The translations under genes and the position numbers were made by a program. A DNA stretch of 64,000 nt from Bacteroidia bacterium. Lineage in GTDB: Bacteria > Bacteroidota > Bacteroidia > J057. Positions within the stretch are counted from its first letter, which is position 1. Each line of letters opens with the position of its first letter. The notes under the pieces were generated by a model. It saw nothing but the letters and a program-made list of their open reading frames with translations. It was not told where the DNA came from and ran no database searches. Of this stretch, positions 2,521 to 43,251 are shown one piece after another. The stretch covers positions 1 to 64,000 of the forward strand of contig JBGSTW010000013.1 of assembly GCA_041753595.1 (NCBI GenBank), in the 5' to 3' direction.

Positions 2521-2572
2521 TTTGCGCCCTGTTCCGTTGTAACCTTATGCCTTTATCCGAATTATTTTAGGG

Positions 2573-3667: not shown

Positions 3668-3728
3668 TTCGGATTCAGGCCAATACAGCTGAGTCTATGT
3701 TTGCTGCTTAATATCCGACTGAAAGTAC

Positions 3729-8756: not shown

Positions 8757-9210
8757 CCGGCCAATTATCGGAGTTCCAGCTAAATCCGGTTTCTTCTTTT
8801 CTGGAAAAAAGCATCCAGCGCAGCCCGTTGGTAATCACGAGATGGGGAGCGTGAAAAACCTCATTGTACCTCACCACCTGCATCACGGTAGCGTCGGTAA
8901 GGGGCACCTGTGGCTGTTTACATTCGATCAGCATCCAAGGCTTTGCCTGGCGGTCAAACACCACCAGATCGAAGCGCTTTTTTTGCCGGAAATAAGGGAT
9001 GGCCTTTTCTACCCCGATCAGACCCGGCGCAATACCACGGTCCTCTACAAGATGAATCAGCACCTGTTGCCGCACCACTTCTTCGGGTGTCTCTATGATC
9101 CATTTGTTCCGGACCGGATCCCATATCCGCACTTTCCCTTCAGCTTCTGCTCTTTCAAGCACTCTGACGGGTATAGCCCAGGGAGCCGGTCCGGTCCATT
9201 CATCACTCAT
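8746..9210 (-). CDS. standalone HsdR_N-like (type I restriction enzyme R N-terminal, PD-(D/E)xK fold) domain protein
   Basis: 154 aa with the D...ECK motif (VVFDRQAKPWMLIECKQP). Its ATG (9210..9208) overlaps the TGA stop of the upstream S8 protease gene in the sequence ATGAGTGA. Its 3' end overlaps the convergent FecR-like gene by 11 bp. Confidence 0.65.
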   Translation of the reverse strand: MSDEWTGPAPWAIPVRVLERAEAEGKVRIWDPVRNKWIIETPEEVVRQQVLIHLVEDRGIAPGLIGVEKAIPYFRQKKRFDLVVFDRQAKPWMLIECKQPQVPLTDATVMQVVRYNEVFHAPHLVITNGLRWMLFSRKEETGFSWNSDNWPVKE

Positions 9211-12184: not shown

Positions 12185-12223
12185 GGTGTAATTCTTGGTA
12201 AATGAAAAATGAACGACATGCTA

Positions 12224-15172
12224 TCAGTGAACAATCTGAATGAGGCTTGTTCCGGGCAAATTTCCGGAATTCCAGCGTAATGCATACACTCCATTGGCCA
12301 CATCCCCTACCGACACGACCACATCGCCGTTTACATCGGTCATCTTAGCTGATTTCCATACCAACTTACCTGATAGGTCGTAGAGGTTGAGCGAAACCAT
12401 TTGTTGGGTAATGCCGCTGAAATGGAGTTTCCAGCTTCCGTTGTTTGGGTTAGGATATACGGTAACGCTTGTTCCTGCTGAAGGGTCAGTAATGGAAGTA
12501 GGCCGCTCGCCTATTACTACTATTTTTTGCGTAGCTGCTCCACCGCAGCCTGCATTCCCCTGAGACTGCAACGTAGCGAGGTATGAACCGGCCACCTGGT
12601 ATTGATAATTTACGACCTTGCTGGTGTCTGTCTGTCCATCGCCAAAACTCCATATCCGGCTCACGCTTCCGGGAGTTTGGTCGGTAAACTGGATAGATTG
12701 TCCCAAAGAGCGATTCATGAGGGTATCAGAAACTGCTATGGAAACCGCCAGGCCGCCAGGCCTTGCCCGGGCGATCACCCTGCGCCGAAGGCACGAAGGG
12801 TTAGAGGCAATTTTCCAGTCAAATATTCCCGGATAGGCACCTCCCGAAAGGGTAGAACCCGTAATGTTGATCACCCCCGGCTGCACCAAAGGATAATTTA
12901 CGCCTGAAGAAACAGCCAGGAGATTGCCTGTGCCGCTGATCTCCAGCAGGTAGGTCTTCCGGGATTCGATGTCAAAATCCACGGGTAAAATTTGCTTACC
13001 AGCCTGAAGTACTTTCGAGGTGCTGTTAATGATTTGCCCGAGGGTATCTTTCAATACAATGAAGGCAAAACCTGCACCGGTGGCATAAACCGTAACCGAT
13101 TCGAGGGTAAACCCCTGCAATGCTTCAAACCTGAGGGCACCCAATGCGGGAGACAAAGACCTGCCAATAGTATCGGCCAAACCCGCCCATACAGGTTCAT
13201 ATCCTTCTGCGTAAAAAGCAGTATCGGCCAGCAAAGGAGGGGTAAGAAACAGAGCGCCTTTTCCGAGCAATTGACCTCCGGTTGACCGGGAATACCAACG
13301 CACATCTCCGCTCAGCACCTGGGCCTGAAGCAGTGCGCGGGCGCCTTGGCAAGCCTCACCGGCTGTAACGGAGGGAATAGGACCGGTGGCAATAGTAAAG
13401 GTCGCTTCCCCATAGTTGTCGAGGGGGCGGTCGTCCGGCTGGTTATTTACTGAAATAATTTCTACCTGCATCCTGTAGGTGCCCGGCGAAAGCGAAGGGC
13501 CTGTAACTACCACGGGCTGTACCCCTCCGACGGGTATATTACCGGCCCAGGCGGTGGTATCCCAGTTTTGGCTATCGAAAGTGTAGCGGATAAGGGCGGT
13601 AGTCACAGGCAGGTTGCCCAGGTTTTTCATCACTACCACCGGAAGGGGATTGGGACTGCATACCTTTGCGGGCAGGTTCAGCACCTCTACAAATTCTACA
13701 TTCCGGTCATTGACAGGAGGCACCGGTATATGGCCCTGGCTAACGAGGTATTGGAAAGCGGCGCCGAGGTTGATCAGGCCGCGGCCATAGTCGTTATCTT
13801 CACCTACAGGTCCGAGATCCGTGGCAGAAAAATAAAGAGCAAGCTTGATCTGTGTTCCGGTGAGGTAGGGGAAAGCCTCCTTTAACAACACAATGGCACC
13901 CGTTACGTGCGGAGAGGCCATGGAAGTGCCCGACAAATTGCCATAAGTTCCATTAGGCAAGCTCGAACGCACATTCACGCCTGGCGCCGACACCTCCGGC
14001 TTAATCAGCAGTGCTGCCGTATCCCCGCAAATGGAAGGCCCCCGGCTGGAAAAATTGGCGATTGGAATCGAGGCAACGCTGGCTGCAACAGCACCTACAC
14101 AGAAGGTATTGACCAGATCGAGGTTGATATTTTTGGGAGGGGTAATGGTAGAGATGCCCGGACCACTATTGCCCGCAGAGAAAACCACCGCTATACCCGC
14201 CGTTTCGAGCGCAGTGAGCGTGCCTACATACAGGCTCTGGCATTCCGCCGAAAGTCCCCCGTTGAACCAGGAGTTGTTGATGGCATCTGGCATATCGTTG
14301 ATGGTCCCAGGGTCATTGTCCGGGTCCAGCGCCCATTGAAACGAAGCGATCGTTTTGTCGGTTGTAGATCCGCCTCCACAGATGCCCTGGGCCGCAATCC
14401 ACAAACCATTGAAAGCTACGCCGATGGTGTCGCGGGTGACGGGGTCGAGGCCCACCATGGTACCCACCGTATGGGTTCCGTGTCCGTCGCAGTCGTTAGG
14501 CGTGGTGCTGGTGCCGCTCGGATCGAACCATGACTGGGAGTCGCCTGCATATTTGCCGCGGTAGCGCGCTTTAAAAGCCGGATGCTCCGGATCAACCCCG
14601 GTATCCATGCTCATGGCGATGCGGGAGTAACCCGAATAACCCATTGCCCACAAGGCGGGAGCACCGATGGTTACCAGCCCGATTTCTTTGCCATTGGCCA
14701 CGGTAATACCCTTGGGCATAGTTGGCTCGCGGTAATAGTCTTCGAGAAATACCGGGTGGTTAAGGTCCAGGGAAGCCACTTCCGGGTGAGCAGCTATTGT
14801 TCCAATGGAAGAGGCATTTACCTTCACAAAAACGGCATTCACAATCCAGAAAGGACGGATGGAATTAACTTCAACCCCCTCCTGTGCACGTAACCACTGC
14901 AGGAAATCGGGCTGGGTGGCCTCCGCTTTTGCCTGCAGGCGCGTAATCACCTGAAAAGCTCTCTCCTCCAGCGACGCCTGGCGAAGGGTAAGCTCCTGCT
15001 CCAGCGCCGGAAGATTCACCTGGTTCTGAAACAGAATGCAGATGTCGTAGGTAGCAGCTCCAGTCTGCATTTCGGCAGCCAGTTCGGGGGAGATCTGAGC
15101 CGCTAGCTGTGCATAGGCGGGCATTGCCCCTGCGCCCAGCAAGAGCCATGCGCCTAAGAGGTATTTTTTCAT
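12224..15172 (-). CDS. S8 subtilisin-family serine peptidase with PKD domain and T9SS C-terminal sorting domain (paralogue 2 of 3)
   Basis: Motifs DTGVDPEHPAF, HGTHTVGT and GTSMASPHVTG. PKD motif WSFGDGQTDTS. C-terminal domain VTVYPNPNNGSWKLHF...VYALRWN. ATG at 15172 (MKKYLLGAWLLL); the ORF track extends upstream to 15223. Confidence 0.9.
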   Translation of the reverse strand: MKKYLLGAWLLLGAGAMPAYAQLAAQISPELAAEMQTGAATYDICILFQNQVNLPALEQELTLRQASLEERAFQVITRLQAKAEATQPDFLQWLRAQEGVEVNSIRPFWIVNAVFVKVNASSIGTIAAHPEVASLDLNHPVFLEDYYREPTMPKGITVANGKEIGLVTIGAPALWAMGYSGYSRIAMSMDTGVDPEHPAFKARYRGKYAGDSQSWFDPSGTSTTPNDCDGHGTHTVGTMVGLDPVTRDTIGVAFNGLWIAAQGICGGGSTTDKTIASFQWALDPDNDPGTINDMPDAINNSWFNGGLSAECQSLYVGTLTALETAGIAVVFSAGNSGPGISTITPPKNINLDLVNTFCVGAVAASVASIPIANFSSRGPSICGDTAALLIKPEVSAPGVNVRSSLPNGTYGNLSGTSMASPHVTGAIVLLKEAFPYLTGTQIKLALYFSATDLGPVGEDNDYGRGLINLGAAFQYLVSQGHIPVPPVNDRNVEFVEVLNLPAKVCSPNPLPVVVMKNLGNLPVTTALIRYTFDSQNWDTTAWAGNIPVGGVQPVVVTGPSLSPGTYRMQVEIISVNNQPDDRPLDNYGEATFTIATGPIPSVTAGEACQGARALLQAQVLSGDVRWYSRSTGGQLLGKGALFLTPPLLADTAFYAEGYEPVWAGLADTIGRSLSPALGALRFEALQGFTLESVTVYATGAGFAFIVLKDTLGQIINSTSKVLQAGKQILPVDFDIESRKTYLLEISGTGNLLAVSSGVNYPLVQPGVINITGSTLSGGAYPGIFDWKIASNPSCLRRRVIARARPGGLAVSIAVSDTLMNRSLGQSIQFTDQTPGSVSRIWSFGDGQTDTSKVVNYQYQVAGSYLATLQSQGNAGCGGAATQKIVVIGERPTSITDPSAGTSVTVYPNPNNGSWKLHFSGITQQMVSLNLYDLSGKLVWKSAKMTDVNGDVVVSVGDVANGVYALRWNSGNLPGTSLIQIVH

Positions 15173-15182
15173 GCTAAAATAA

Positions 15183-18155
15183 TCAAGGCGTAACGGTGAT
15201 TCGCTGAACCGACCGCTGGCCATTCAGATAAAGGGTAATGGCGTAAAATCCGGCGGGCTGAGCAGAAAGGTCCAGTACAAATTTTCCTGATTTCCCGTTC
15301 AGTTCTCCTGCTTTGATCTGGCGACCGGAGAGGTCGGTAAGCAACCACTGGGCAGCAGCAGGATTTTCCCATTCGTAGCTTACTTCGAAATAGTCGTTGC
15401 CAACATTCGGCCTTACTTCCCATTTTCCTGGAAAAGCAAAAGCAGGATCGATGGCAGTAGGAAAGCCTTCAGCCACGATTTGCAGGGTGTCGGCATCACC
15501 ACAACCGGTGCTACCTGTAGCAAACAAAGTAACGCGGTAGGTGCCAGGGAAGAGGAAGGTGTGATCCGGGTTTTGGGAAGTGCTGGTGGAGCCGTCGCCA
15601 AAATTCCAAAGCCAGGAAGTAGCTCCCTGCGACTGGTCGGTAAAGGTCACTACAGGGTTTGCCTGCAGGTTGATGGTGGTGGCGCTGGCAGCGATAGCAG
15701 CAGCTACGGTACCTGCTCCCACGGTGGCGGTAGCAGGCGTTCTTCCGCAAATACCTTCGTATTCAATTTCCCAGTCGTAGAAGAAATAGTAAAATTTGAG
15801 GGCAGAATTGTCGAGGTTGGAACCGATAATTTCCAGCACTCCGGGAATCACATACGGAAGTTGCAGGTTGGAGAAACTACGGTAAAGACCTCCCACACTG
15901 CCAGGGTTAAGGGCCAACTGCAGATTCTGACCAGCGGGTATGGTAAAATCCAGGTTAACCCTTGACTCACCAACAGGTACGTTTACAATTTTGGTTAACA
16001 ATATCTGGCTGGATGCACTGCGCAAAACAATCACCTGAAGACCTGCTACATTGGCGTAAATCTTCACTGACTTCAGCAAAAATGATTGGTCTGCGCTGAA
16101 GATCATATAGTTGTTCAGGGTGTTTTCATAATTACCGAGGTCGCCGGTATTGCCCGATTTCCCGATATTCTGGGTTTGCACCTGGGCTGCATAGTAGGTC
16201 GTATTGGCAGCAAGTGCAGGGGTAAAGAGGCTCGCACCTGTGGATACAAGCGTTCCACCTGTCTGGTTGGTGTACCACTTTACCTTTCCGGTATCTACCG
16301 AAGCGGTAAGCAGGGCCTGGCTGCCAGCACATACCGTGGCATTGGTGGTAACCGGGGCTTTGTCTCCGGAAATGGTAAATGACTTCTGGATCTTGTTATT
16401 CAGGTAGAAGTAGTCATTCTGACCATTGACCGTAATGGCTTCTACCACTAAGGTGTATTGTCCGGGAGCCAACGTGGCATTCGGGAACAGAATAGGCTGG
16501 GTAAGTCCGGCGGGTAAGCCACCCGTCCAGTTGAAGGTATCGGGGGTACCTCCGTCGTAGGAGTACACCATTTTGAGAGAAGTAAGCGGCTGGGTACCCT
16601 GATTTTTGATGCTGATAAACGGCAAAATAGAAGAGGTACAGTTGAGGTCATTTATATTCAGCACCTCCAGTACGGCTACATCCACCTCCCGCGAAACAGT
16701 CACCGGGGTATTGCCTTTACTTACGAGGTAGTTGTAAGCGGCCAAGACATTGATCATGCCATTCCCGTAGTCATTGTCTTCGCCCGGAGTGCCGAGGTCA
16801 TCAGCTGTGAGGAACAAGGCCATTTTTATTTCGCGACCCGTGAGGTACGGGAATGCCTCTTTGAGCAAAAGTACAGCACCCGTAGCGTGAGGAGACGCCA
16901 TGGAGGTACCTGTGAGCAATTGATATCCGCCATTGGGGCCAGCTGAGCGCACATTTACGCCCGGGGCACTTACCTCCGGCTTGATGGTGAGCGTTCCGAC
17001 AGGTGCGGGGCAAAGCGAAGGTCCCCGGCTGGAGCCGGGGTCAACGGGGTAATTGTTGTTGTTGCCATTGACCATGGCCACACAAAAAACATTGACGGTG
17101 TCAACGTTTATATTTTTGGGAGAAGTGATGGTGGATACACCGGGGCCATCATTTCCTGCGGCAAAAACCACAGCAACGCCTGCGGCTTCCAGGGCCACAA
17201 GGGCATCGCGGGTGGTAGAAGTACATTCCTGTCCGCCGGTTCCGCTGTTCCATGAATTGTTGATGGCATCGGGAATATCGTCGGTGGTGTTCGAGTTGTT
17301 GTCGGGGTTCAGGGCAAATTGAAAAGAAGCAACGGTGCTTACATTGCCACAACCGATCGCTGGAGCCGCCATCCACAATCCACCCGGGGCTACCCCGATG
17401 GTGTCTCTGGTAGCAGGATTGAGTCCCATGATCGTACCGGTCACGTGCGAGCCGTGGTTAGAACTGGGATCACAATCGGCAGGAAATGTGGTTCCGTTGT
17501 TGCTGTACCATGCCTGGCTGCCGGGTTTAAAATTTCCGAGGTAGCCCGCCTTGAGCGCGGGGTGCGTGCCTTGTACGCCTGAGTCGATGATATAGGCTAC
17601 CCGTCCGTATCCGGTATATCCGAGCTTCCACATTTCAGGGGCATGGATGGCGGTATGCCCGTTTTCGTGGCCATTGGCTGAGGCGATGCTTGCCGTAGCT
17701 GCGGTGGTCATGTCCAGCTCCATCGGTGCCTCCCAATCGATCCATTCTATATCCGTACGGTTGCTCAGAGCCGCGATGGCATCGTGATTGGCGCGCAATA
17801 CGACCGCATTTACAATCCAGATTGGCTGAACTGAATAGGGCTCAACGCCCGAAATCGTTTGAATGAAACTCAACAGCGGGCCCTGGGTGCTGGCGGCTTT
17901 GGCCTGCAGGGTTTGTACAACCACCCGTCCGCGGGTTTCCAGCGAAGCATTTGAGCGACGGAGGCTGAGCTCCAGGCTGTAAATATCTACCTTATCGGTA
18001 AGCGATACCACAATCTGCTGAAAGGCCTCGGGGTCCTGGGCCATGCGCATGAGCAAATCGGTGCTTACCCTTGTACCATCTAATATAGGTTGTGCTGTGC
18101 TTATCAATGGAAGCCAAAACACCAACAAAGCAAGGTTGCGTAAAACCTGTTTCAT
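15183..18155 (-). CDS. S8 subtilisin-family serine peptidase with PKD domain and T9SS C-terminal sorting domain (paralogue 3 of 3)
   Basis: Motifs DSGVQGTHPAL, HGSHVTGT and GTSMASPHATG. PKD motif WNFGDGSTSTS. C-terminal domain ...FEVSYEWENPAAAQWLLTDLSGRQ...FYAITLYL. ATG at 18155 (MKQVLRNLALLVFWLPLISTA). Only 10 bp separate its stop from the start of paralogue 2. Confidence 0.9.
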   Translation of the reverse strand: MKQVLRNLALLVFWLPLISTAQPILDGTRVSTDLLMRMAQDPEAFQQIVVSLTDKVDIYSLELSLRRSNASLETRGRVVVQTLQAKAASTQGPLLSFIQTISGVEPYSVQPIWIVNAVVLRANHDAIAALSNRTDIEWIDWEAPMELDMTTAATASIASANGHENGHTAIHAPEMWKLGYTGYGRVAYIIDSGVQGTHPALKAGYLGNFKPGSQAWYSNNGTTFPADCDPSSNHGSHVTGTIMGLNPATRDTIGVAPGGLWMAAPAIGCGNVSTVASFQFALNPDNNSNTTDDIPDAINNSWNSGTGGQECTSTTRDALVALEAAGVAVVFAAGNDGPGVSTITSPKNINVDTVNVFCVAMVNGNNNNYPVDPGSSRGPSLCPAPVGTLTIKPEVSAPGVNVRSAGPNGGYQLLTGTSMASPHATGAVLLLKEAFPYLTGREIKMALFLTADDLGTPGEDNDYGNGMINVLAAYNYLVSKGNTPVTVSREVDVAVLEVLNINDLNCTSSILPFISIKNQGTQPLTSLKMVYSYDGGTPDTFNWTGGLPAGLTQPILFPNATLAPGQYTLVVEAITVNGQNDYFYLNNKIQKSFTISGDKAPVTTNATVCAGSQALLTASVDTGKVKWYTNQTGGTLVSTGASLFTPALAANTTYYAAQVQTQNIGKSGNTGDLGNYENTLNNYMIFSADQSFLLKSVKIYANVAGLQVIVLRSASSQILLTKIVNVPVGESRVNLDFTIPAGQNLQLALNPGSVGGLYRSFSNLQLPYVIPGVLEIIGSNLDNSALKFYYFFYDWEIEYEGICGRTPATATVGAGTVAAAIAASATTINLQANPVVTFTDQSQGATSWLWNFGDGSTSTSQNPDHTFLFPGTYRVTLFATGSTGCGDADTLQIVAEGFPTAIDPAFAFPGKWEVRPNVGNDYFEVSYEWENPAAAQWLLTDLSGRQIKAGELNGKSGKFVLDLSAQPAGFYAITLYLNGQRSVQRITVTP

Positions 18156-18329
18156 GAAAGGTAATTGATAATGATCAGAAAGGGGGAAGAGTTGAATTCG
18201 AAAGATAAAACAAGCCCGGCAAAAATTCACCCGATTTCGTGGCATAGGCCCCGCAATATCCATCAACGGTTATAGGTTGGCTTTTCCAGGTTCCTGTCGT
18301 AATTTTCAAAATAAACCATATACAGCCCC

Positions 18330-20088: not shown

Positions 20089-20535
20089 ATGACCGCCGAA
20101 ATCCTGCTTCGCTACCTACACTTTATCAGCATTTTCGCTATTGTCGGCGCCCTCCTTGCCGAGCACCTGCTGCTGAAACCCCGCCTTACCCGATTGGCGA
20201 TCACTCAACTCACCCGCATCGATGCGATATATGGCATCGCGGCAGTAGTATTGCTGGCGGCGGGCTTTACGCTATGGCTGGGAGGCGTAGGCAAACCCTC
20301 ATTTTTTTATACCAAAAACTGGGTGTTTCACGTCAAACTTGGCTTGTTCGTGGTGCTGGGACTGCTGTCCATTTACCCCTCCGTATTTTTTATGAAAAAC
20401 CGCAAAGGAGACCCGGAGGAGGAAATCGAAATTCCGGCGATGGTATTCTGGATGTTGCGACTGGAGCTGTTGATCCTGCTGATTATCCCTTTGTTGGCGG
20501 GGCTCATGGCCAAAGGGGTGGGATTTTTCGGATAA
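20089..20535 (+). CDS. small integral membrane protein (4 predicted TM helices), hypothetical
   Basis: Hydrophobic segments FISIFAIVGALLA, IAAVVLLAAGFTLWL, LGLFVVLGLLSIYP and LLILLIIPLLAGLMA. It lies 18 bp downstream of the NTF2-like gene. Confidence 0.55.
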   Translation: MTAEILLRYLHFISIFAIVGALLAEHLLLKPRLTRLAITQLTRIDAIYGIAAVVLLAAGFTLWLGGVGKPSFFYTKNWVFHVKLGLFVVLGLLSIYPSVFFMKNRKGDPEEEIEIPAMVFWMLRLELLILLIIPLLAGLMAKGVGFFG

Positions 20536-20543
20536 AAAACCGC

Positions 20544-21161
20544 TCAGGCATCCGCATCCTGGGGCCGGGTTTTCAGCACTATTTTCTTTTTGTTTCCCGT
20601 ACCTACCTGAGTCGCGGCCTGCTTATTGGCCAGCGATTCGGCGAGCTTGGCGCGTTTTTCAGCTTCGGCTTCCGGGGTCATGGTGGCAAATTCGAAGTTC
20701 AGGGCTTCCCGCTCAAAATGGCTATAGTCGTATTCGGGCGTCATGGTCAGGCACTCGGTGGGGCAAACGGTGGTGCAGAGCCCGCAAAAGCAGCACTTGG
20801 CAAGGTCGATGTCGAAAGTGGCCAGTTCGAGCCTTTTTTTGCTGCCGTCGGAAGTAGTGCCGAGGTCGTCCACCGCCTTGAATCCGTCGATGTCGATGCA
20901 GTCCACGGGGCAAATGCGCGCGCATTTATCGCATACAATGCAATCGTCCTCTTCGAGGTGTAGCTGATAGCGGCCATTGACAGGCGTAGGCACCGTTTCG
21001 CGAGGGTACTGAACCGTAACCGGACCATCGGGACGGTCAAAATAGCCCGCCGCCTGGATGCCCAGTTGATTTCGCCGGGTACCCGCCCGCCCAAAATGCC
21101 TGCCGGTAAGGAGCAAGCCGCCCACGAGGGTCTGCCAGGTCTGGAGGAATTCGCGTAGCAT
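20544..21161 (-). CDS. nuoI: NuoI-like 2x[4Fe-4S] ferredoxin (NADH-quinone oxidoreductase subunit I family)
   Basis: Two CxxCxxCxxxCP motifs: CIVCDKCARICPVDC and CCFCGLCTTVCPTEC, with NuoI-like spacing. ATG at 21161; the ORF track starts at a TTG at 21167. Confidence 0.75.
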   Translation of the reverse strand: MLREFLQTWQTLVGGLLLTGRHFGRAGTRRNQLGIQAAGYFDRPDGPVTVQYPRETVPTPVNGRYQLHLEEDDCIVCDKCARICPVDCIDIDGFKAVDDLGTTSDGSKKRLELATFDIDLAKCCFCGLCTTVCPTECLTMTPEYDYSHFEREALNFEFATMTPEAEAEKRAKLAESLANKQAATQVGTGNKKKIVLKTRPQDADA

Positions 21162-21260
21162 GGTCAAAGGTACTGGTTTTCGACTTTCCGCGACTGTGGG
21201 GATTTATTTTTCAAAACAGTTCCTTCGCTTGCATACATTTCCCGGCAGCTTCCACTCCGC

Positions 21261-24200
21261 TCAGGATTTGTCTTCGAGCACCTTGCGGATGGCTTCCATG
21301 TGGCTGGTAAACTGGCCGATGTCGCGCACCAGCTGGGCCATGTAGTCGGCGTTCAGGGCTTTTGTTTCCAGGAAAATGCGGCAGATTTCCTCCCACCTGT
21401 TTTTTTCTTTTTCTGAAAAACGGTCCATCATCCGCTTGAATGCCAGCATATTGGCCTCTGCCCCACTGGCCAGGGTTTGCGATTCGGCTTCGTAGTGGCC
21501 CATGATGAGGACATCCAGCTCGGTATCGTTCATCACGGGCGACACCTTTTCGGCGAGGCGACCCATGTTGCGGTAAGAGCCCTGCAGGCGGAAAGGCGGT
21601 TCACGGCGATAAGCCTCTGCCTGCGCAGCGGAGGAAATGTAGTTTTGGTTTACCTTCAGCACCACCTCGCGCACCACCAGCAGCTTTTTCAGCACCGACA
21701 CGGCGTCGTTCAACTCGTCGGGAGAGAAATTGCTGGAAAACTCAGCACCGGCCAGATCCCCCGTTTCGGCGAGGCGATAGAGCGTGTAGAGGTCCTCCTG
21801 CGGGCGTGAAGCGAGCGAAGCCAGCACCGGATTGCTGGTGAGGGCATTTTCGATATAGCTCAACCGGAAAGCTGATTCATTGCCACCGAGCATGTCGCCG
21901 AGGTTGTAGATATCTGCCCGGTTGGCGAGCATGTCGGGTATCGTAAACCGCTCGCCCGACTCGGTATAGGGGTTTCCCGCCATCACGATTGCCAGCCGCC
22001 TCCCGCGAAAATCATAAGTGCGGCTTTTGCCTTTGTACACGCCTTCTACCTTGCGCTGGGCATCGCAGAGGGAGATGAATTTTTGTAAAAATTCGGGGTG
22101 GGTATGCTGGATGTCGTCGAGGTAGATCATCACGTTGTCGCCCATCTCAAAAGCGAGGTTGAGCTTTTCCAGCTCCTCGCGGGCAGCGGCGTTGGTAGCA
22201 GCACCAGGGTCGAGCGAGGTTACCTGATGACCCAGCGAAGGGCCGTTTATTTTCATAAAAATCAACCCCAGCCGCTGCGCTACATACTCCACCAGGGTCG
22301 TTTTGCCGTAGCCTGGCGGGGATATCAGAAGCAGCATGCCCGAACGGTCGTTGCGCGATTGCTCGTCGGCTGTGCCGATTTGCTTGGCAAGGTTGGCCCC
22401 GATCATCGGTAGGTAGACCTCGTTGATCAGGCGGTTGCGCACAAATCCACTCATGGGCCGCGGCCGGAAATCGTCGAGGCGGATCTGGGCGGTAAATGCC
22501 TGCACCAGCCGGGTTTTGAGCGAAGTAAACGTGCGGAAAAGCGGTGCCAGCTCGAGGTCGAAGTGGCGCATTTTCCCCGAAAAACCGTGATAATCGAGCG
22601 CATAGCTGCCCTGTTCGATCAGCTTGTGCTCCCCGCGCATACCGGGTATGACTTCTTCGCTCGAAGCGGCATGCACCGATTTCTCCTTCCAATCGTCGAT
22701 ATACATCAGCCCGGCAACCTCAGCGGCTGCATGGTAGGGGTCGGCGATACCTTCTTTGGCCAGGTAGGAGCGCACCCAGCCGAGCATGAGCCGATACCTC
22801 TCCACCGAATGATTTTCGAGGGCGGTTACCTGCGCCTGAAAAGCGGTGGCTGCCTTTATTTTTTTCAGAAAAACAAAAAATCCCTTAAACATCGTACCGG
22901 CCAGCTTGCTGATGGGCAGGTCGGCAGATCGGGAGCTGATATCCATCAGGAAATCAACCGCCGCGGCAGCCTCTTGTGGGTCGCCCCAACCTGCTGCGGC
23001 AAACGCGGCAACCTTCTCCTGCAATTCTGCCTTAATTTCCGCTGCCCAGGCCGCGCCGATATCCAGCTTGCGCACCGCATCGGCCGCTTCGAGCCGGGCT
23101 TTCCACACGGGCAATTCTTCAGCGCTCAGTCCTGCAAACAAAAACAACCGCCCCAGGGTGCGTACCGAAGGCGCATAGGCCAGCAGGCCCAGGCCCGATT
23201 TCAAGCGGAGTAAGCCCTCCACGATCAAGGTGGCGTCGTGGTCGTGCACGCCTTTCACGTATCCTTCCTGAAACCGGTCGGCCATGAAGGTGCGCACCTG
23301 CTCGCCCGTGTCGCCCAGCGGATCAAATGCCGGGGTTTCCAGCAGCTTATAGGCGAGGTATTCGGCGCGGTAAACGGCGGTATTTTCGGAGGGAAGCGAT
23401 TGGCTCCAAACGGGACGGGTGGCATCCAGTTCGGGGTCGTTGATGGGTTCGAAAAAGCGGGTGCCCGTAAGGTGGTAAGACAGCTGGTCGTGCTGCAACG
23501 CCACGGTAGCTTCGAGGGGGTGCTGCTGCACCGAAAAGCGGTGATTGCCCAGTTTCAGCACATGGGCCTGGTCCTCAAATATCTCTTTCCGGTCGCGGAG
23601 CTGGCGTACGGCTTCTTCGCGGAGGCCCTGCAGGCGGCTCATCAACTCGGTGGCACGGGTGGGGTCGTTGAGGCTTTGGAGTTGGGTGGCGAGGTCGCGC
23701 ACCTTCACCGCCATGAGGTCGGCAGCAAAGTAGGCGTTTATTTCGTCGGGGCTTTCCATGCGGGCGAGGCGCTGGCGGATGCCTTTCAGGATGCGGTCTC
23801 CGGCATCGGCGAGGGAAGCAGATTTACGGTTACGCTCCTCCACGAGGGACACGCGCCGGGCTTCGAAGGTCTGCACTACTTCTTCGCGCTTGAGGGCAAG
23901 GTCGGTGGCAAATTCTTCAAAATCAGCAAATTTCCCATCCAGCTCCTCCAGTTGCACGGTGAGGCGGGTGAGGTATTCGTCGCATTTTTCGGGCGAGTCG
24001 CTGAGCTCAAAGTAGTTGGAGATCGACTGCGAAAAGAGCCGGAGCTGCGCGTGAAATTCGGCCGAGGCCTCGGCTTTGCGCAGGTCTTTGCGGCGGTTGC
24101 GAAGGGCGCTGCGAATGGCGTTTATTTCGGAGAAAAGAACCGAGATACGGTCAATGATGGCCGTGGTTTGGGTAGCGTCTTCGATGGGCAGGCTGCCCAC

Positions 24201-26099
24201 GGTTTCGATCAGCAATTCGAGCTGACGGGCGGCTTCGTCGAGCAGCTTTTCTACCTTATTGGCTTCGGCTACCTTGGTTACGGCTTCAGCTTCTTTGCGG
24301 AGGCGGGCGGCGGTTTCCTGGTATGGCTGCAGGGCTTCGGCTTTCAGCAAAAAAGCCACACAGTCACGGGCCAGGGCCAGCGATTGCGCGCCGATGCGGT
24401 TTTCCCAGTCAGAAAGGGCTTCGAGGTCGGCGTAGCGCAGATCCCGCAGAGTAATCACTTCTCCTTTCAGCCCCCGCAAATCGCTGAGGTAACCGACAAA
24501 TTCCTGCACTTGGCGGGCACCGTGGCGGCGTACTTTGTCGAGCAGGGTCGTAGCTTTTTCTGCAAATGTACCCACCGAATCGCGGGCCAGGGCCTGCAGA
24601 CGGCGCACTTTTTCAAATTCATCTATGGCGGCGGAAGCGGCAGCTTTTACCCCCGTGACCGGCACCGAAAGCTCAAAAGCTTCTTTATTTTTCAGCCAAT
24701 AATACCCGTCGAGGATATCGCCTGCTTTTTTGGATACATCGAGGTAGAGGCTGTTGTAGGGATCGGGTTTTTCGAGCAGGGTAAGCAGCTCGCGGCATTC
24801 GGCCAGGCCTTTCACGAGGTCTTTGTTGCCCACACGTGCCAGCCACGAATCGCTCACGGTATCGGCCGAGGCGGTATCGATGCCGTAAGGGGTCGTCCAG
24901 ACCTGAATCGTGTGCCGCCTGCCGGGCTCGGCTTCGGCCCTGAAATAGCAGAGCTCCCCGCCCGGGAAAAGCGAAAATCCCTGGCAAACAATGGGCGTAT
25001 CGGCCTGCTGGGCCACGAGGTTGTACGGAAAAAGGGTGTAGTCGCCCAGCTCGGGGTTGGTGAACACGTAGAGGAAATCTTCGCCGTTCGGGGAAGTAAT
25101 CCTTTTTTCAAACTGAAGGCCGGGGGGTATTTTTTCAAACACCTTGTAACCGCCCGTTTGGAGGTAAAAACCGCTGGGGAAAATAAGCCCCTGGTTGTCG
25201 GGCAGGAGTACGCAGGCCCCTTGCAGTGCATCGATCCGCACGGCGGTAGCCAGTTTTTCGTTCACCACGATGTAGCGAAAGTCGCGTTCCTGGTAGGGTT
25301 TTACCTTGAGTACGATGAGGTTTCCTACAAAAGCGTAGTAGATCTCAGCGTCGTCCAGGGTCTGGTCGGGCTGGGTGACGGCTTCGGAGAAAATGCCTTT
25401 GCCGGTGTCGGTATTGTCCTCCACCTTCACGGTAAGGTCACCGCCGATGGTTTCTACAAAGATGTGGTCCTCAATGGAAATATGCGGGTGCTTGCCCTTG
25501 CGGTGCATGTCGCGGGTGGTGCGCTTCCACTGAAACTCGTGCTGATCGGGGAAACGAAACTCGTGGTCGAAGCGGTTGCCCTGGTAGTGGAGCTCGTTTT
25601 CGCGTACGGTCCACTTAAAGGTGCGGATGTCGGAGATGGTTTTCCCGGTCTGAAAAACCATGAACAGGTTGGGGCCAATGACCGCAAATTTCGAGAAGAC
25701 CGTTTCTCGGTAGTATTTGTAGAGGTTGTTAAAATCTTCGAGAAAACGAGCGTCTTCGATCATCTCCAGCGAAAGCGGCTTAAAGCTGAAGTCGCTGGTT
25801 TCGAATTGAAAAACGCTGAATACGTCGGCCAGTTTTACTTCTGTCCGCAACCCGATGTGCACATTGTAGCCAAACAAGAGCGTGTCTCCGATCGCGGCCA
25901 TGTCGCGGGGGAGGCAATTGTTGTCGGTGGTGACATGGTTCGTGGCGGCCAGCTTGGGTTCGCGTGCGCCGAAAATTTCTTTCCGGGCGGCGTTCAGCTG
26001 GTCCATACGGCTGCGCAGGTCCTGGGCCTGGGTGTCCAGGCGTTGTTTCAGGATGTCGTAAGCGCCCGTATCGAGCGCCACGTTTTCAGGTTGTGACAT
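21261..26099 (-). CDS. giant (~1612 aa) multidomain protein with a single AAA_5/MoxR-type AAA+ ATPase domain near residue ~1230; function unknown
   Basis: Walker A LLLISPPGYGKTTLVEY. Walker B VMIYLDDIQH. Followed by RRLAIVMAGNPYTESGERFTIPDMLANRADIY, where MAGNP resembles the MoxR/dynein-type NP motif. The N-terminal ~450 aa are beta-rich, the middle ~700 aa are strongly helical, and the C-terminal ~250 aa are helical. ATG at 26099, with a TTG at 26105. Confidence 0.85.
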   Translation of the reverse strand: MSQPENVALDTGAYDILKQRLDTQAQDLRSRMDQLNAARKEIFGAREPKLAATNHVTTDNNCLPRDMAAIGDTLLFGYNVHIGLRTEVKLADVFSVFQFETSDFSFKPLSLEMIEDARFLEDFNNLYKYYRETVFSKFAVIGPNLFMVFQTGKTISDIRTFKWTVRENELHYQGNRFDHEFRFPDQHEFQWKRTTRDMHRKGKHPHISIEDHIFVETIGGDLTVKVEDNTDTGKGIFSEAVTQPDQTLDDAEIYYAFVGNLIVLKVKPYQERDFRYIVVNEKLATAVRIDALQGACVLLPDNQGLIFPSGFYLQTGGYKVFEKIPPGLQFEKRITSPNGEDFLYVFTNPELGDYTLFPYNLVAQQADTPIVCQGFSLFPGGELCYFRAEAEPGRRHTIQVWTTPYGIDTASADTVSDSWLARVGNKDLVKGLAECRELLTLLEKPDPYNSLYLDVSKKAGDILDGYYWLKNKEAFELSVPVTGVKAAASAAIDEFEKVRRLQALARDSVGTFAEKATTLLDKVRRHGARQVQEFVGYLSDLRGLKGEVITLRDLRYADLEALSDWENRIGAQSLALARDCVAFLLKAEALQPYQETAARLRKEAEAVTKVAEANKVEKLLDEAARQLELLIETVGSLPIEDATQTTAIIDRISVLFSEINAIRSALRNRRKDLRKAEASAEFHAQLRLFSQSISNYFELSDSPEKCDEYLTRLTVQLEELDGKFADFEEFATDLALKREEVVQTFEARRVSLVEERNRKSASLADAGDRILKGIRQRLARMESPDEINAYFAADLMAVKVRDLATQLQSLNDPTRATELMSRLQGLREEAVRQLRDRKEIFEDQAHVLKLGNHRFSVQQHPLEATVALQHDQLSYHLTGTRFFEPINDPELDATRPVWSQSLPSENTAVYRAEYLAYKLLETPAFDPLGDTGEQVRTFMADRFQEGYVKGVHDHDATLIVEGLLRLKSGLGLLAYAPSVRTLGRLFLFAGLSAEELPVWKARLEAADAVRKLDIGAAWAAEIKAELQEKVAAFAAAGWGDPQEAAAAVDFLMDISSRSADLPISKLAGTMFKGFFVFLKKIKAATAFQAQVTALENHSVERYRLMLGWVRSYLAKEGIADPYHAAAEVAGLMYIDDWKEKSVHAASSEEVIPGMRGEHKLIEQGSYALDYHGFSGKMRHFDLELAPLFRTFTSLKTRLVQAFTAQIRLDDFRPRPMSGFVRNRLINEVYLPMIGANLAKQIGTADEQSRNDRSGMLLLISPPGYGKTTLVEYVAQRLGLIFMKINGPSLGHQVTSLDPGAATNAAAREELEKLNLAFEMGDNVMIYLDDIQHTHPEFLQKFISLCDAQRKVEGVYKGKSRTYDFRGRRLAIVMAGNPYTESGERFTIPDMLANRADIYNLGDMLGGNESAFRLSYIENALTSNPVLASLASRPQEDLYTLYRLAETGDLAGAEFSSNFSPDELNDAVSVLKKLLVVREVVLKVNQNYISSAAQAEAYRREPPFRLQGSYRNMGRLAEKVSPVMNDTELDVLIMGHYEAESQTLASGAEANMLAFKRMMDRFSEKEKNRWEEICRIFLETKALNADYMAQLVRDIGQFTSHMEAIRKVLEDKS

Positions 26100-26121
26100 G
26101 GCCAAAGGAAGTTTTCAGGGA

Positions 26122-28299
26122 TCAGGAAATGCCCGCCTGGTCGGCTGTTTTGTCGCTGATACCGAGAGATTCGACCACGCCCATGAGCTGCTGCAGCACC
26201 CCGCGCTGCGACTTATCGTTGGTCTGCGCCATCATTTTCAGGATCAGCGCCGACATCGAGAGGTTTTTGAGGTCGTCGGTCGATACCTTAAACTGGGCAA
26301 TAAACTCGCGCAATTTTCCCGTAAACTGGTTGTCGGAGCCGTCGCCAATCAGCTGGTTTTTGAGGCCATTGAGGGTGGAGCTGTGCTCAAAGAGGTTATC
26401 GACGTATTTGGCACTGACGACCGAACGGGTGATGCGGTCGAAGAACTCCTGCTCACCCCCGATGATGTCGATGTTGGCAGATTTGAGGGCTTCGGCGATG
26501 ACCATGGCCTGGGAAGCGGCCACGTCCTTCTGCACGTTGATGCGGGCGAGCTCGACCACTTTCTGCATGTCGAGGCGGAGCTTAAACTCCTCGTGGTCTT
26601 TGCCCACGCCGTCGAGCTGCTTCATGGCTTCGGCTTTGGCCTGTACGCCTTTGGCATCGGCTACGGCTTTGAGCTCGATAACGGTAGCTTCGCTGCGGCC
26701 CATTTTTTCTACGGCAGAGGCTTTCACTTCCGTTACTTCGGCTTCTACCTTGCCTTGTTCCGATTTCAGGGCGTTTTCGGTTTGTCCGAGGCGCTGGTTG
26801 GCATCGGCCTGGGCTTCGCCTTTGAGCTGTATGCCCTGGGCTTCGGCTTCGGCTTTCATGCGCAGCACATTGGCTTCCGCAAAACCTTCTTTTTCCTTGG
26901 CATGGGCCTTGGCTTCGAGCACGCGGGCTTCGGCTAGTCCGAGGGCGGCATGTTCTTCGGCCACGGCATCGGCCATTATTTTTTTGGCTTCGGCGTCCTT
27001 GTCCACGGCTTCGCGCTCGGCGGTAGCCACGATCAGGCGGGTTTGAGATTCGAGCTGGGCAGCTTCTTTTTGGGCTTCAGCGCCTTTTATTTTCACCACC
27101 AATTGCTCCTGAGCCTTTTGCTCGGCGGCGAGGATAGCTACCTTTTTGGAGCGCTCGGCCTCGGCAAAAGCAGAGGTATCTTTTATTTTTTCCTGCTCTT
27201 CTACCACGGCACGCTCCACCACCACGCGGTCGCGGATCACGTCCTGGATATTTTTCTTTTCCTCCTCCACGGCCTTTTCTTTGCCGATCTGCGCAATGGC
27301 CACGATGCGTTCGCGGTCGGTAGATTCGAGCTGGCGGTCGCGCTCCACTTTTTCGCTTTCTACGGCCAAGGTGCGCTCTTTGCTCTTCTGGGCCACGATC
27401 ACGTCGCGGGTTTTATTCTGCTCTTCGATGTCGATCTCCCGCTCGCGGGCGATGCGGGCGCGCTCGGATTTGGTCAGCTCTTCCTGCTGCACCCGCTTGA
27501 TTTCGGCTTCTTCGCGTGCTTTTACCGAGGCAACCTCCCGCTTCTGGATTTCTTCTTTTTCTGAAAGCTGGCGATTCAGCTCCAGAATGGCTTCCTGGGC
27601 TTCTACGTCCTGGCGCTTGATTTCCTTTTCCTTGTTGCGCTGAATTTTGTTGGCGAGGGTAATCTGGTGGCTGGTCAGCTCGCGGATTTTCTTGATACCC
27701 TCGGCGTCGAGGATGTTGTTTTCGTTGAGGAAGTCGATGGGGGTTTGCTCCAGGAAGTCGATGGCGCAGTCGTCGAGTACGTAGCCGTTGAGGTCGCGGC
27801 CGATGAGGTTCATGATTTCTTCGCGGAATTTTTCGCGGGCGTTGTACAGCTCCACAAAATCAAACTTCTTGCCCACGGTTTTGAGGGCTTCGGAGAACTT
27901 GGCTTCGAACAGGAGATTGAGCAGCTCGTGGTCGGAGGCACGGGCACAGCCGATGGTTTGGGCTACCTTCTTCACGTCGTCCACCGTGGGATTTACCCGC
28001 ACAAAAAATACCACCTTGATGTCGGCCCGGAGGTTGTCTTTACAAATAAGGCCCTCTTTGCCTTCGCGGGAAATCATCACCTGCTTCAGGGATATCTCCA
28101 TGGTTTCGGCATTGTGCAGGAGCGGGATGACCCACATACCTTCAAAAGCGACTCGGGTATTGCCGTAGCCGGTGCGCACCAGGGCTTTTCCCTGGGTTAC
28201 TTTTCGGTAAAAAAGGGAGATCAACGTCACGTAGCCAAAAATGGCCACCAGTACAATGACGCCGAAAATGATCCCAATGTTGAGTAGGAGGTTGTTCAT
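26122..28299 (-). CDS. flotillin-family SPFH/Band-7 protein (long form, 725 aa)
   Basis: N-terminal TM helix IGIIFGVIVLVAIFGYVTLI. The SPFH domain spans RTGYGNTRVAFEGMWVIPLLH...TQ. A long E/K/A-rich coiled-coil follows, then a flotillin C-terminal region. Confidence 0.9.
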   Translation of the reverse strand: MNNLLLNIGIIFGVIVLVAIFGYVTLISLFYRKVTQGKALVRTGYGNTRVAFEGMWVIPLLHNAETMEISLKQVMISREGKEGLICKDNLRADIKVVFFVRVNPTVDDVKKVAQTIGCARASDHELLNLLFEAKFSEALKTVGKKFDFVELYNAREKFREEIMNLIGRDLNGYVLDDCAIDFLEQTPIDFLNENNILDAEGIKKIRELTSHQITLANKIQRNKEKEIKRQDVEAQEAILELNRQLSEKEEIQKREVASVKAREEAEIKRVQQEELTKSERARIAREREIDIEEQNKTRDVIVAQKSKERTLAVESEKVERDRQLESTDRERIVAIAQIGKEKAVEEEKKNIQDVIRDRVVVERAVVEEQEKIKDTSAFAEAERSKKVAILAAEQKAQEQLVVKIKGAEAQKEAAQLESQTRLIVATAEREAVDKDAEAKKIMADAVAEEHAALGLAEARVLEAKAHAKEKEGFAEANVLRMKAEAEAQGIQLKGEAQADANQRLGQTENALKSEQGKVEAEVTEVKASAVEKMGRSEATVIELKAVADAKGVQAKAEAMKQLDGVGKDHEEFKLRLDMQKVVELARINVQKDVAASQAMVIAEALKSANIDIIGGEQEFFDRITRSVVSAKYVDNLFEHSSTLNGLKNQLIGDGSDNQFTGKLREFIAQFKVSTDDLKNLSMSALILKMMAQTNDKSQRGVLQQLMGVVESLGISDKTADQAGIS

Positions 28300-28329
28300 G
28301 GGAGGGAAGAAAAATGGTTTATTCAGAGA

Positions 28330-28992
28330 TTATTCAAAAGGTGAAACCAGATAAATGTCTTTTTCCGGGTCAAATTCAACGATGAGTGCCTGGGTGCCTT
28401 TTTCCAGGGCAATATCGCCTTCAGCGGCGGCATTGAGCTGAAAATGGCCTTCGTCGGTTTGTAAACTGATGCTGCCCATGCGGCCCGGAGAGATTCGGGT
28501 AACGACCTCGCCTATTTTCCCCACCAGCTCTTTCTTTTCTTTACCGCCCGCATTCATTTTCGCAAACATGCCCTTGAAAGGACTGGTAAATACCTTGGTG
28601 AGAAACAGGCCGATGAGGAGATTGGGAATCAGCCAGATCAGGAAAAACAAAGCCAAAGCACCCCCTATCAGCCGCTCGCCGATGAGCGAACCCGCCCACA
28701 GAAAAAAGGTGAAAAAGGTGAAAAATACCATGAAGGGTACTTTTCCAAGGTTGAAAAACGCGAGGGTTTCGAGTAAAAATCCCCCACCGGCGCCATCGCC
28801 ATCGTGCATGTCGCCATCGTGGCTGAGGTCGGCATCGTGGCTGAGGTCCGCGTCGTGGTCGGTGTGTATGTCGAGAAAATTGAGGTCGAGGGCCCCAAGA
28901 AATACCGTGACCCAGTACACCAGCACCAGCAGGAGGAGCAGGGTGTAAAAGATATGTACCGGAGAAAATGCAAGTCGAAACAGTTCAGCCAT
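28330..28992 (-). CDS. NfeD-like (YqiJ/YuaF-like) membrane protein, flotillin partner
   Basis: N-terminal TM helix and an acidic His/Asp loop HDADLSHDADLSHDGDMHDGDG. Further TM helices, then a C-terminal OB-fold-like soluble domain GKIGEVVTRISPGRMGSISL...LIVEFDPEKDIYLVSP. ATG at 28992, with a TTG at 28998. It sits 30 bp upstream of the flotillin gene. Confidence 0.8.
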   Translation of the reverse strand: MAELFRLAFSPVHIFYTLLLLLVLVYWVTVFLGALDLNFLDIHTDHDADLSHDADLSHDGDMHDGDGAGGGFLLETLAFFNLGKVPFMVFFTFFTFFLWAGSLIGERLIGGALALFFLIWLIPNLLIGLFLTKVFTSPFKGMFAKMNAGGKEKKELVGKIGEVVTRISPGRMGSISLQTDEGHFQLNAAAEGDIALEKGTQALIVEFDPEKDIYLVSPFE

Positions 28993-29215
28993 ATTCAAAA
29001 TATTACGACATGCCCATACACTACTGATCTATCCTGCCAGCTTATCGCTTTCAAGGTATTCACAGTAAAAAAGCAGATTTTACCCGAAGGTTGAAACAGG
29101 GAACAGGAATTTAATCAGTATAATTTTCTTCCCCGCTTGCTAACACTTCAGTCTATGCCTGGGCAATACACAGCGCGGCTCCGTCACTTTTAAAAGAACT
29201 ATTGACCTTCTACTC

Positions 29216-29833
29216 CTATTTATCCAGCAGCGTGTTCGCGCCTTCCGGCATCGCTAAGCCCTGAAAGTGATCGGTAAGGCCATAGAAAATGGCGAGCATC
29301 AGCAAAAAACCTATTCCAAGCAGGGCCATAGATTGCTGCGTTACGGAAAGGCCGAGCAGGGAGTGCTTCATTTTTTTGTGGTGAATAGAAGCCACGTGCG
29401 CGAAAAATGCCATAATCGCCAATCCGTAATAGGGTACAAAAAAGAAATAAAGCGGAAAGGCATTCACCCCCGCTGCACCGAAGTAGAGGTTGGTATCGAG
29501 CTGAAAAAGATAACGCCCGCTCATCACCGCTGAAAGGTGAATAACCAGGAAAAATGCCAGGTATAGCCCCGACCAGCGATGGAGTTTTTCAAATCCGGAT
29601 ACCGCCTCTTTTTTTCCCTGAAAAAACAACCGCACTCCCGTCACAATTTGTACCCCGCAGGCAGCCAGCAGTACGGGCTCTACGAACCTGTTCCGGTATA
29701 CCAGCCGGAGTTGATCCATTACCGCGAGGTGTAGTTCAGCGCCCCGGATGCTGAGGAAGTGATTAATGAGGTGCGCGCCGATGAAGAGGGTAAGCGTTAA
29801 CCCGGAGTAATAGTGTATTTTTTTAAGGCTCAT
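29216..29833 (-). CDS. integral membrane protein with conserved His residues in its TM helices (possible haem-b-binding), hypothetical
   Basis: Five hydrophobic helices. Histidines lie inside them, at GAHLINH, VIHLSAV and FFAHVASIHH. Confidence 0.55.
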   Translation of the reverse strand: MSLKKIHYYSGLTLTLFIGAHLINHFLSIRGAELHLAVMDQLRLVYRNRFVEPVLLAACGVQIVTGVRLFFQGKKEAVSGFEKLHRWSGLYLAFFLVIHLSAVMSGRYLFQLDTNLYFGAAGVNAFPLYFFFVPYYGLAIMAFFAHVASIHHKKMKHSLLGLSVTQQSMALLGIGFLLMLAIFYGLTDHFQGLAMPEGANTLLDK

Positions 29834-30119
29834 GACAGACGAAATTCAGCGCTAGAGGGGATATCAAGATTAATAGTACTTGCGGGATTATCAGGATTGT
29901 TTTCCGCGATTTTCAAAGGTTTAATCTCAGCATTTTTCGCAGACCACTTTCTTTTGGGTAGTACCCATGGCTTTGTTCCTTCCGCCAAAAGATGGGTAGT
30001 AGCACGCACGATTTGCTGGACGAATTGCTCCTGAGACTCACCCTGGACTAAAAACTATAGATCACTCCGCAGCTTACGAAAAATCCGGCGGCCCGCCACC
30101 CAGGCGGCAGCCCACGCAC

Positions 30120-31418
30120 TCATAAATAGACCATCGCCTGCAGGCGCAGCAAAGCATGGGAAGGGGTACGGGTCAGCAGGCCGGGTTCCCGTTGGTGCTG
30201 GTATTCCAGGGTGAGCTTTGCATGGTGCCCGTCGATGTACCAGTTGACCCCGCCGCCCATCATGCGGCCGATCGGCTCCCGGTATGCGCGGTAGGCCTCC
30301 AGGTCGCGGTGAGTAAGATGGATATAGGCTTGCAGCCGTCCCCGGTCCGTGAAGGCAGGTAGCAAATAGCCCAGCTGCCCAAACAGGATGGTGCCCGTGC
30401 CGACACCACCCACGCCGCCGGTCCAGTTGGGACCCCAGTCGTGCCGCACCGCAGAACCGTAGGCGGTAATTGCCGCGCCGCCCGTTCCCAGCGGACTGTC
30501 ATAAAACACATCCACCGCCAGCGAGGTGGGGTTGTAAAAAGTCAGTTGGCCTGCCTCATCACAGGAGGTCGCCCCGGCCACGTGGTGGAAGAATCCCACG
30601 CCGATATTGAAGACCTTCCGGGTGCCGAGGTAGCTTCCCGTAAAGTAGGGCAGCAGGTTGCTCTCCTGCTCCAGCAGCTGATAATTGACATAGCCCTGGT
30701 ACACCTTACCTCCGCCGGGATTTTCAGGATTGCGGTAGATCACCCGGTCCGGAACGAGGATTTCTGTCCCGGTATCGTTGGGGGCTGTATGCTTGTCGTA
30801 GCCCCGGCTGGGGTTACTGATGGCTTCGTTGATTGCCAGGCGGTAATCCAGTCTCCCGAGCTTGCCCTTGGCAAAAAAGCCGAGGTGCCGGGCAAACTGG
30901 TCGGTGGTACCGATCGTGGGCCAATTGTGAATAGGCGCATCGAGGGTCAGCATATTGAGGGTACTCTGACTGGTGAGGCGGGAAATGCCGTTCCAGTAAT
31001 GCAGGCCGCCTCCCAGGTCCAGCTTGCCCTTAAGCACGGCATACTGGACCCAAGCATCGTGGAGGAAGAGTTGACCGGACTGGCCGGGCTCTCCCACAGG
31101 ACCATTGGCGCCCATGTTGTCCGGGCCGAGGTTGTTCAGCCCAAAATGCGTATTGATCAAAAAACGATCATTGATTTGCGCATACATCAGCACACGTGAC
31201 CGCCGAAGCAGAAAATCCGTTTGCAGCTGATTCTGGTCGTCCTTTTGTGCCGTAGCCCAAACCTGGTGCCAGCTGATCAGGCGAAAGTACTTACTGCCGT
31301 TCTCGTTGAGCGGGACAGTCAATCCGCCGGTATAATCAGGAGAGCCCTGCCCCCGCAGGGGGGAGATCAGGGCTGCGAGCCCCGGTATCAGTAGAATAAA
31401 GAGAATATTCCGGCGCAT
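30120..31418 (-). CDS. outer-membrane porin-like beta-barrel protein
   Basis: Signal peptide MRRNILFILLIPGLAALISPLRG. Amphipathic beta-strands alternate throughout, and the sequence is rich in G/N/Y/W. Confidence 0.5.
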   Translation of the reverse strand: MRRNILFILLIPGLAALISPLRGQGSPDYTGGLTVPLNENGSKYFRLISWHQVWATAQKDDQNQLQTDFLLRRSRVLMYAQINDRFLINTHFGLNNLGPDNMGANGPVGEPGQSGQLFLHDAWVQYAVLKGKLDLGGGLHYWNGISRLTSQSTLNMLTLDAPIHNWPTIGTTDQFARHLGFFAKGKLGRLDYRLAINEAISNPSRGYDKHTAPNDTGTEILVPDRVIYRNPENPGGGKVYQGYVNYQLLEQESNLLPYFTGSYLGTRKVFNIGVGFFHHVAGATSCDEAGQLTFYNPTSLAVDVFYDSPLGTGGAAITAYGSAVRHDWGPNWTGGVGGVGTGTILFGQLGYLLPAFTDRGRLQAYIHLTHRDLEAYRAYREPIGRMMGGGVNWYIDGHHAKLTLEYQHQREPGLLTRTPSHALLRLQAMVYL

Positions 31419-43145: not shown

Positions 43146-43251
43146 GCGCGCAAAGGTAGGGAATTACGGGATAAGCCAAAGCGGTGGTTTTTATTGAAAA
43201 AATGACAGCGCAGTTCTCAGTCACCCCCAGCTTTCCCGAAAGGAAAAGCCC

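Follow-up and report, generated by a model that had tools for sequence, protein, structure and literature searches.

Subunit I of the proton-pumping NADH:quinone oxidoreductase (complex I), variously called NuoI, Nqo9, NDUFS8 (TYKY) and NdhI, carries two CxxCxxCxxxCP motifs separated by a long spacer, and in NuoI and NdhI an N-terminal helix is followed by a (V)T.QYP.E segment; the protein described below shares these features and, in its predicted structure, the fold. The ferredoxin-like subunits HycF, HyfH, EchF and MbhN of group-4 membrane-bound hydrogenases are homologous 2x[4Fe-4S] proteins with the same core fold, and clostridial ferredoxins have about 18 residues between their motifs. 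In Rhodothermus marinus, a member of a Bacteroidota-related group, nqo8 and nqo9 are reportedly independent genes beside two nqo operons, and the gene considered here resembles that arrangement in that subunit I is encoded outside the main clusters; in contrast to R. marinus, the lineage at hand is Cytophagales-like, and its members differ in how nuo is broken up (HIJKLMN, HI, IJK, a lone nuoI or a lone nuoH). Dispersal of complex I genes is already on record: according to Spero et al., nuoA-N lie together in just 86% of complex-I genomes (PMC4453560), and Moparthi and Hagerhall point to "many examples" of prokaryotes in which the genes form two or three scattered clusters (PMC3144371). Here we examine a nuoI-like gene that stands alone in a 64-kb window (by which we mean the whole stretch of DNA that was analyzed), and we consider it very probable that it encodes an ordinary, genuine NuoI belonging to a fragmented nuo set, displaced from its operon as commonly happens in this clade.

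The open reading frame list and translation place the nuoI coding sequence at 20544-21161 on the minus strand, giving 205 amino acids counted from the ATG and ending in a TGA stop codon at 20544-20546. As the original prediction had noted, the intact frame (20544-21167, minus strand) offers two possible starts, the ATG at 21161 and a TTG at 21167, two codons upstream, which would yield 207 amino acids. An identical 205-residue protein in a public collection (P0001) derives from a gene call that begins at the ATG, and the N-termini of homologs align from residues 2-3 in ATG numbering. The translation contains the predicted subunit-I cysteine spacing: the first cluster motif, C74-x2-C77-x2-C80-x3-C84-P85, is encoded at 20907-20942 and the second, C123-x2-C126-x2-C129-x3-C133-P134, at 20760-20795 (both minus strand), and the 38 residues between C84 and C123 form a long, NuoI-type spacer. 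In alignments, the second motif lines up with its counterpart in NdhI and Escherichia coli NuoI. In an alignment of 50 family members, the columns of both motifs are invariant; invariant columns number 39 in all and include the eight cysteine ligands of the clusters and the two prolines. The gene looks functional. Its GC content (0.58) is in line with that of the surrounding genes, and so there is no sign of recent transfer.

One element of the original prediction, an N-terminal extension of about 90 amino acids, gave way on alignment. Seventy-three residues precede the first cysteine, and their alignment is to the usual N-terminal part of NuoI and NdhI (a helix, then ..L.H.. and VT.QYP.E). 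All that is added is an insertion, some 18-20 amino acids long, at residues 28-47 (21021-21080, minus strand); it follows the N-terminal helix and precedes the VTVQYP motif, and its Y40-F41 is invariant in the 50-sequence alignment. This insertion is present in all Cytophagales-type orthologs, whether encoded in an operon or alone, and absent from the aligned NuoI proteins of Ignavibacteria, Bacteroidales and E. coli; it overlaps the lowest-confidence stretch of an AF2 model, at about residues 31 to 60. The other departure from known subunit I proteins is a variable C-terminal tail (residues 160-205; 20547-20684, minus strand), which the AF2 model predicts to contain a long helix at residues 163-190. 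Because this tail varies, homolog lengths range from 170 to about 470 amino acids.

Profile and structure comparisons agree on the family. The top NCBIfam models for the protein are nearly all NuoI/NdhI, with TIGR01971 at 94.2 bits (E = 4e-27), although these scores lie below the curated cut-offs (94.2 versus 113.05 for TIGR01971 and 93.1 versus 163 for NF004537). As a control for the cut-off, scores were obtained for FCB-group (Bacteroidota and Ignavibacteria) NuoI proteins whose genes have nuo neighbors. The NuoI of the Reichenbachiella nuoHIJKLMN cluster reached 83.6 bits, that of a nuoH-nuoI pair at locus L037 99.4 bits, those of two Amoebophilaceae nuoH-nuoI pairs 87.0 and 91.9 bits, that of a Spirosomataceae nuoI-nuoJ-nuoK cluster 73.6 bits, and those of 11-gene operons 104.3 bits (Ignavibacteria) and 97.3 bits (Prolixibacteraceae). 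All of these values (73.6-104.3 bits) fall under 113.05, and the cut-off is therefore non-discriminating in the FCB group; the sub-threshold score would thus reflect the NCBIfam models rather than the window gene.

Among PDB entries, NdhI of chloroplasts and cyanobacteria matches best by sequence (E = 1e-23, with the alignment to NdhI spanning residues 19-158 of the window protein), ahead of NuoI/NDUFS8 from bacteria and mitochondria; the window protein is 29-33% identical to E. coli NuoI. The AF2 model, built from 50 homologs, has a mean pLDDT of 81.5 and predicts a helix at residues 2-25. Foldseek comparison of this model with the PDB returned subunit I (NdhI, NuoI, NDUFS8 or Nqo9) throughout the 50 matches listed, with the exception of HycF (7z0s_F) at rank 41. 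The ferredoxin core superposes at 3.5-4.1 Å over about 100 residues, and the low global TM-scores (0.35-0.5) stem from the N-terminal helix, which takes a different, arbitrary position when the monomer is modeled on its own. About 3,000 homologs were found at E <= 0.001, several already labeled NADH-quinone oxidoreductase subunit I; the top-ranked named homologs come from Bacteroidota, chiefly Cytophagales, and P0002 is the nearest after the window protein itself, at 67% identity.

The genomic setting is unlike that of a classical nuoI, since the gene stands alone, 99 nt past the gene of an unrelated giant ATPase. The layout foreseen in the original prediction was recovered in each respect. 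On one side, a convergent DUF2214 membrane-protein gene (20089-20535, plus strand) ends 8 bp from the nuoI stop; on the other, a gene for a 1614-residue DUF3686-DUF7902-AAA protein (21261-26105, minus strand) ends 99 nt upstream of the nuoI ATG; and neither nuoH nor nuoJ flanks the gene. When the 13 Nuo proteins of E. coli (NuoA-N) and seven from Reichenbachiella (NuoH-N) were used as tblastn queries against the 64-kb window, they matched the nuoI reading frame only, and thus nuoI does not lie within a nuo operon in the window.

The 99-nt spacer between the AAA-gene stop and the nuoI ATG (21162-21260, minus strand) was inspected directly and by promoter and terminator scans. A TACCTTTG word at 21165-21172 (minus strand) ends 3 nt before the nuoI ATG and fits the Bacteroidota -7 consensus, TAnnTTTG. 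The TANNTTTG word occurs 30 times in the window against 30.6 expected; words of this type are not enriched, and the word alone is therefore no evidence of a promoter. The same TACCTTTG word is also found at 43151-43158 (minus strand), ending 5 nt before the ATG of a CDP-alcohol phosphatidyltransferase gene (42396-43145, minus strand); if these are true -7 boxes, the words before the two ATGs would imply leaderless or near-leaderless mRNAs. A scan of 20300-21500 for sigma-70 promoters and intrinsic terminators yielded nothing useful on the minus strand, with neither a sigma-70-like promoter nor a terminator-like hairpin on that strand in the 99-nt gap, and an Rfam scan of the whole window gave zero matches. 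Transcription may read through from the AAA gene into nuoI, which by itself would not imply a shared function.

To place the gene among its relatives, we gathered ortholog contexts from one scan of species genomes and from individual protein look-ups, typing the neighbors with Nuo queries. The orthologs are 50-67% identical to the window protein and belong mostly to Cytophagales and unclassified Bacteroidota. Their loci range from a nuoH-I-J-K-L-M-N cluster in Reichenbachiella faecimaris (56% identity), through nuoH-nuoI pairs with no nuo gene after them in eight Amoebophilaceae/Cytophagales genomes and at L037 (60% identity), to nuoI-nuoJ(-nuoK) without nuoH in Spirosomataceae, Lacihabitans and Leadbetterella, where NuoI has a C-terminal extension of 200-300 amino acids. 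In two further loci (L014 and L023) nuoI lies a few kilobases from nuoA/B or nuoF. No nuo gene was seen in the flanks of the orthologs from Pontibacter sp. G13, from a Cytophagales MAG chromosome (L007) and from the nearest relative, P0002, nor beside P0006, for which 190 bp upstream is visible. The NuoI proteins of Spirosomataceae, Lacihabitans and Leadbetterella are 350-473 amino acids long (nine loci), with the extension reaching to nuoJ, and that of Reichenbachiella is 341 amino acids long. Related genomes thus show every stage of nuo fragmentation, including a lone nuoI and a lone nuoH in one complete genome.

Every tabulated ortholog carries the 18-20-residue insertion with its invariant Tyr-Phe, a shared feature that marks them as one clade. 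The original prediction had called for a tree of the protein with its NuoI homologs, and a simple neighbor-joining tree (170 columns, 100 bootstraps) places it among NuoI proteins linked to nuoH or nuoJ: the window protein, P0002, P0006, the Pontibacter sp. G13 protein, the L014 protein and the nuoH-adjacent P0010 form a clade with 93% bootstrap, and a branch with 94% bootstrap divides the insertion-bearing clade from NuoI of Ignavibacteria, Bacteroidales and E. coli. Because the window protein nests with lone and nuoH-adjacent copies, all bearing the insertion, the lone copies are not a separate paralog family; judging from the tree and the insertion, they are a single gene seen at various points in the breakup of its operon.

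Pontibacter sp. G13 (CP134696.1) displays the same state in a complete genome. Its nuoI (3,376,860-3,377,504, plus strand) has no nuo neighbor, and its nuoH (3,358,342-3,359,469, minus strand), about 17 kb away, is also alone, with neither nuoI nor nuoJ beside it. Downstream of the G13 nuoI, an SLT/LysM gene, a methyltransferase gene and dnaN follow in the same order as after the nuoH-nuoI pair of L037. Between the G13 nuoH and nuoI lie three genes for S8 peptidases of ~1000 amino acids with T9SS sorting domains (219-6406 of the G13 locus, L003). The window holds a triplet of tandem S8 subtilase paralogs of about 1000 amino acids each (9203-18266, minus strand), with PKD and Ig_7 domains in all three and a Por_Secre_tail (T9SS sorting) domain in two of the three; it is homologous to the G13 triplet (35-41% identity) and lies 2.3 kb from the window nuoI. 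The nuoI neighborhood is partly conserved between the window and G13.

Together, the orthologs linked to nuoH or nuoJ, the tree and the fragmented relatives lend good support to one of the two alternatives first put forward, a dispersed bona fide nuoI in a split nuo locus. We propose that the window gene encodes a NuoI of the Nqo9/TYKY/NdhI type that would serve a proton-pumping NADH:quinone oxidoreductase. Through the [4Fe-4S] clusters N6a and N6b, this subunit would pass electrons from the peripheral arm toward NuoB and the quinone site, while its N-terminal helix would rest on NuoH. In this Cytophagales-like lineage of Bacteroidota, nuo would no longer be one operon, rearrangement having parted nuoI from nuoH and nuoJ. 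We infer that the remaining nuo genes lie elsewhere in the genome from which the window comes and that NuoI assembles into their complex. The position of the gene by the DUF3686-AAA and flotillin-like genes looks accidental, and its place downstream of them would be a lineage-specific accident of gene order.

A different account, which we regard as unlikely, is that the gene is a second nuoI, redundant or specific to one isozyme, in a genome that also holds a complete nuo operon with a nuoI of its own, for example of the 11-gene Bacteroidales type. The window covers 64 kb of the genome; the phylum includes an 11-gene operon type with a NuoI of about 32-37% identity (L028 and L029); and two complex I isozymes occur in some Bacteroidota, such as Chitinophaga pinensis (PMC4453560). 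Against this account, the tree puts the window protein in the same clade as genes linked to nuoH or nuoJ, and the nuoH and nuoJ fragments seen in relatives adjoin nuoI of the window type and no other, the G13 nuoH having no nuoI beside it at all. Moreover, a pattern scan, which is non-exhaustive, found a single nuoI locus per related genome. A second enzyme would in any case leave the identity of the window gene unchanged, for the gene would go on supplying the NuoI of the fragmented set.

Two further accounts of the gene's position turn on the conserved three-gene module upstream of it (21261-28998, minus strand), which encodes proteins of ~220 (222 amino acids, with a weak YqiJ_N match), ~725 and ~1615 amino acids, the last being the DUF3686-DUF7902-AAA protein. 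The 1614-residue protein has more than 4,000 homologs at E < 1e-50 under the database label "DNA repair ATPase," some of them also in Planctomycetota and Verrucomicrobiota. The label "flotillin" originally given to the 725-residue neighbor is plausible by eye (a transmembrane helix, an SPFH-like stretch and a long coiled coil), while sequence searches returned zero Pfam or PDB matches for it. Farther upstream, at 29216-31418 (minus strand), are genes for a 205-residue protein with weak similarity to cytochrome b561/DUF4405 and a 432-residue protein that weakly resembles ExtI, the porin of a selenite/tellurite reduction operon; neither reaches the model cut-offs. A reading of the module plus nuoI as a defense system was set aside after PADLOC gave only marginal P-loop or coiled-coil matches.

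The possible read-through leaves some room for a less ordinary role, in which a lone nuoI under module transcription ties complex I assembly to the module or serves there as a free-standing ferredoxin; in a milder form, the YF insertion and the tail would make this an undescribed subunit-I variant in Cytophagales. We hold this to be quite improbable. Less probable still, by a narrow step, is the second alternative of the original prediction, that a NuoI-derived ferredoxin was recruited as an electron-transfer partner of the YqiJ-like/flotillin-like/DUF3686-AAA module and is co-transcribed with it as the last gene. Such recruitment would account for the orientation of nuoI on the same strand as the AAA gene, 99 nt downstream with no terminator-like site found on that strand, and for the lack of a nuo partner in the 64-kb window, but the linkage disappears in relatives from whichever side it is approached. 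Homologs of the 1614-, 725- and 222-residue proteins were absent from all of about 30 ortholog loci; a 1469-residue AAA_16 protein encoded near the closest nuoI ortholog has no homology to the window 1614-residue protein. Conversely, nuoI was absent from all three module loci (L039, L040 and L041). At L039, whose AAA gene is the nearest relative (76% identity), the same trio (about 213, 724 and 1613 amino acids) is followed by a convergent HTTM gene without nuoI; a third AAA homolog is followed by a DEAD-box helicase gene; and in G13 the module (1.31-1.33 Mb) and nuoI (3.377 Mb) are about 2 Mb apart. Since the module and nuoI are unlinked in relatives when tested from both sides, the adjacency in the window is lineage-specific. 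Furthermore, the window protein retains the N-terminal region that contacts NuoH, along with all residues invariant in the family, which also counts against recruitment away from complex I.

It is hardly credible that the protein is instead a HycF/EchF/MbhN-type ferredoxin-like subunit working with the [NiFe]-hydrogenase of the same window, for although HycF-type proteins are distant NuoI homologs and genes for both hydrogenase subunits, large and small, and for a maturation protease are present at 48088-51240, these lie about 27 kb from nuoI, the large subunit has a strong PF00374 match and no match to any other Pfam family, including no complex-I-like (group-4) large-subunit match, the similarity of the window protein to HycF/HyfH is much weaker than to NuoI (48.5 and 35.5 bits against 94 for NuoI/NdhI; PDB E = 2e-8 against 1e-23), and the orthologs are linked to nuoH or nuoJ, with none linked to hydrogenase genes. 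Strong PF00374 matches are typical of hydrogenase groups 1 to 3.

The hydrogenase locus comprises, all on the minus strand, a HycI-type maturation protease (48088-48579), the [NiFe]-hydrogenase large subunit (48640-50232) and the small subunit, the latter in two overlapping reading frames (50259-50924 and 50833-51240). The break in the small subunit coincides with a run of eight G at 50887-50894, inside the conserved ..GDCATWGG.. stretch of the hydrogenase small subunit, and the split is probably a homopolymer frameshift, whether an assembly error or a pseudogene. Elsewhere in the window, 57821-62225 (plus strand) holds three consecutive amidohydrolase-family genes (572, 485 and 431 amino acids), with long antisense reading frames over the last two.

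For the displaced NuoI that we favor, the impact beyond annotation is small. The gene should be named nuoI despite its sub-cut-off score and the lack of nuo neighbors, and deciding whether this organism has complex I needs a whole-genome search rather than an operon search. More widely, the fragmentation of nuo in Cytophagales (HIJKLMN, HI, IJK, lone H and lone I) calls for care when metabolism is reconstructed from MAGs on the basis of operons.
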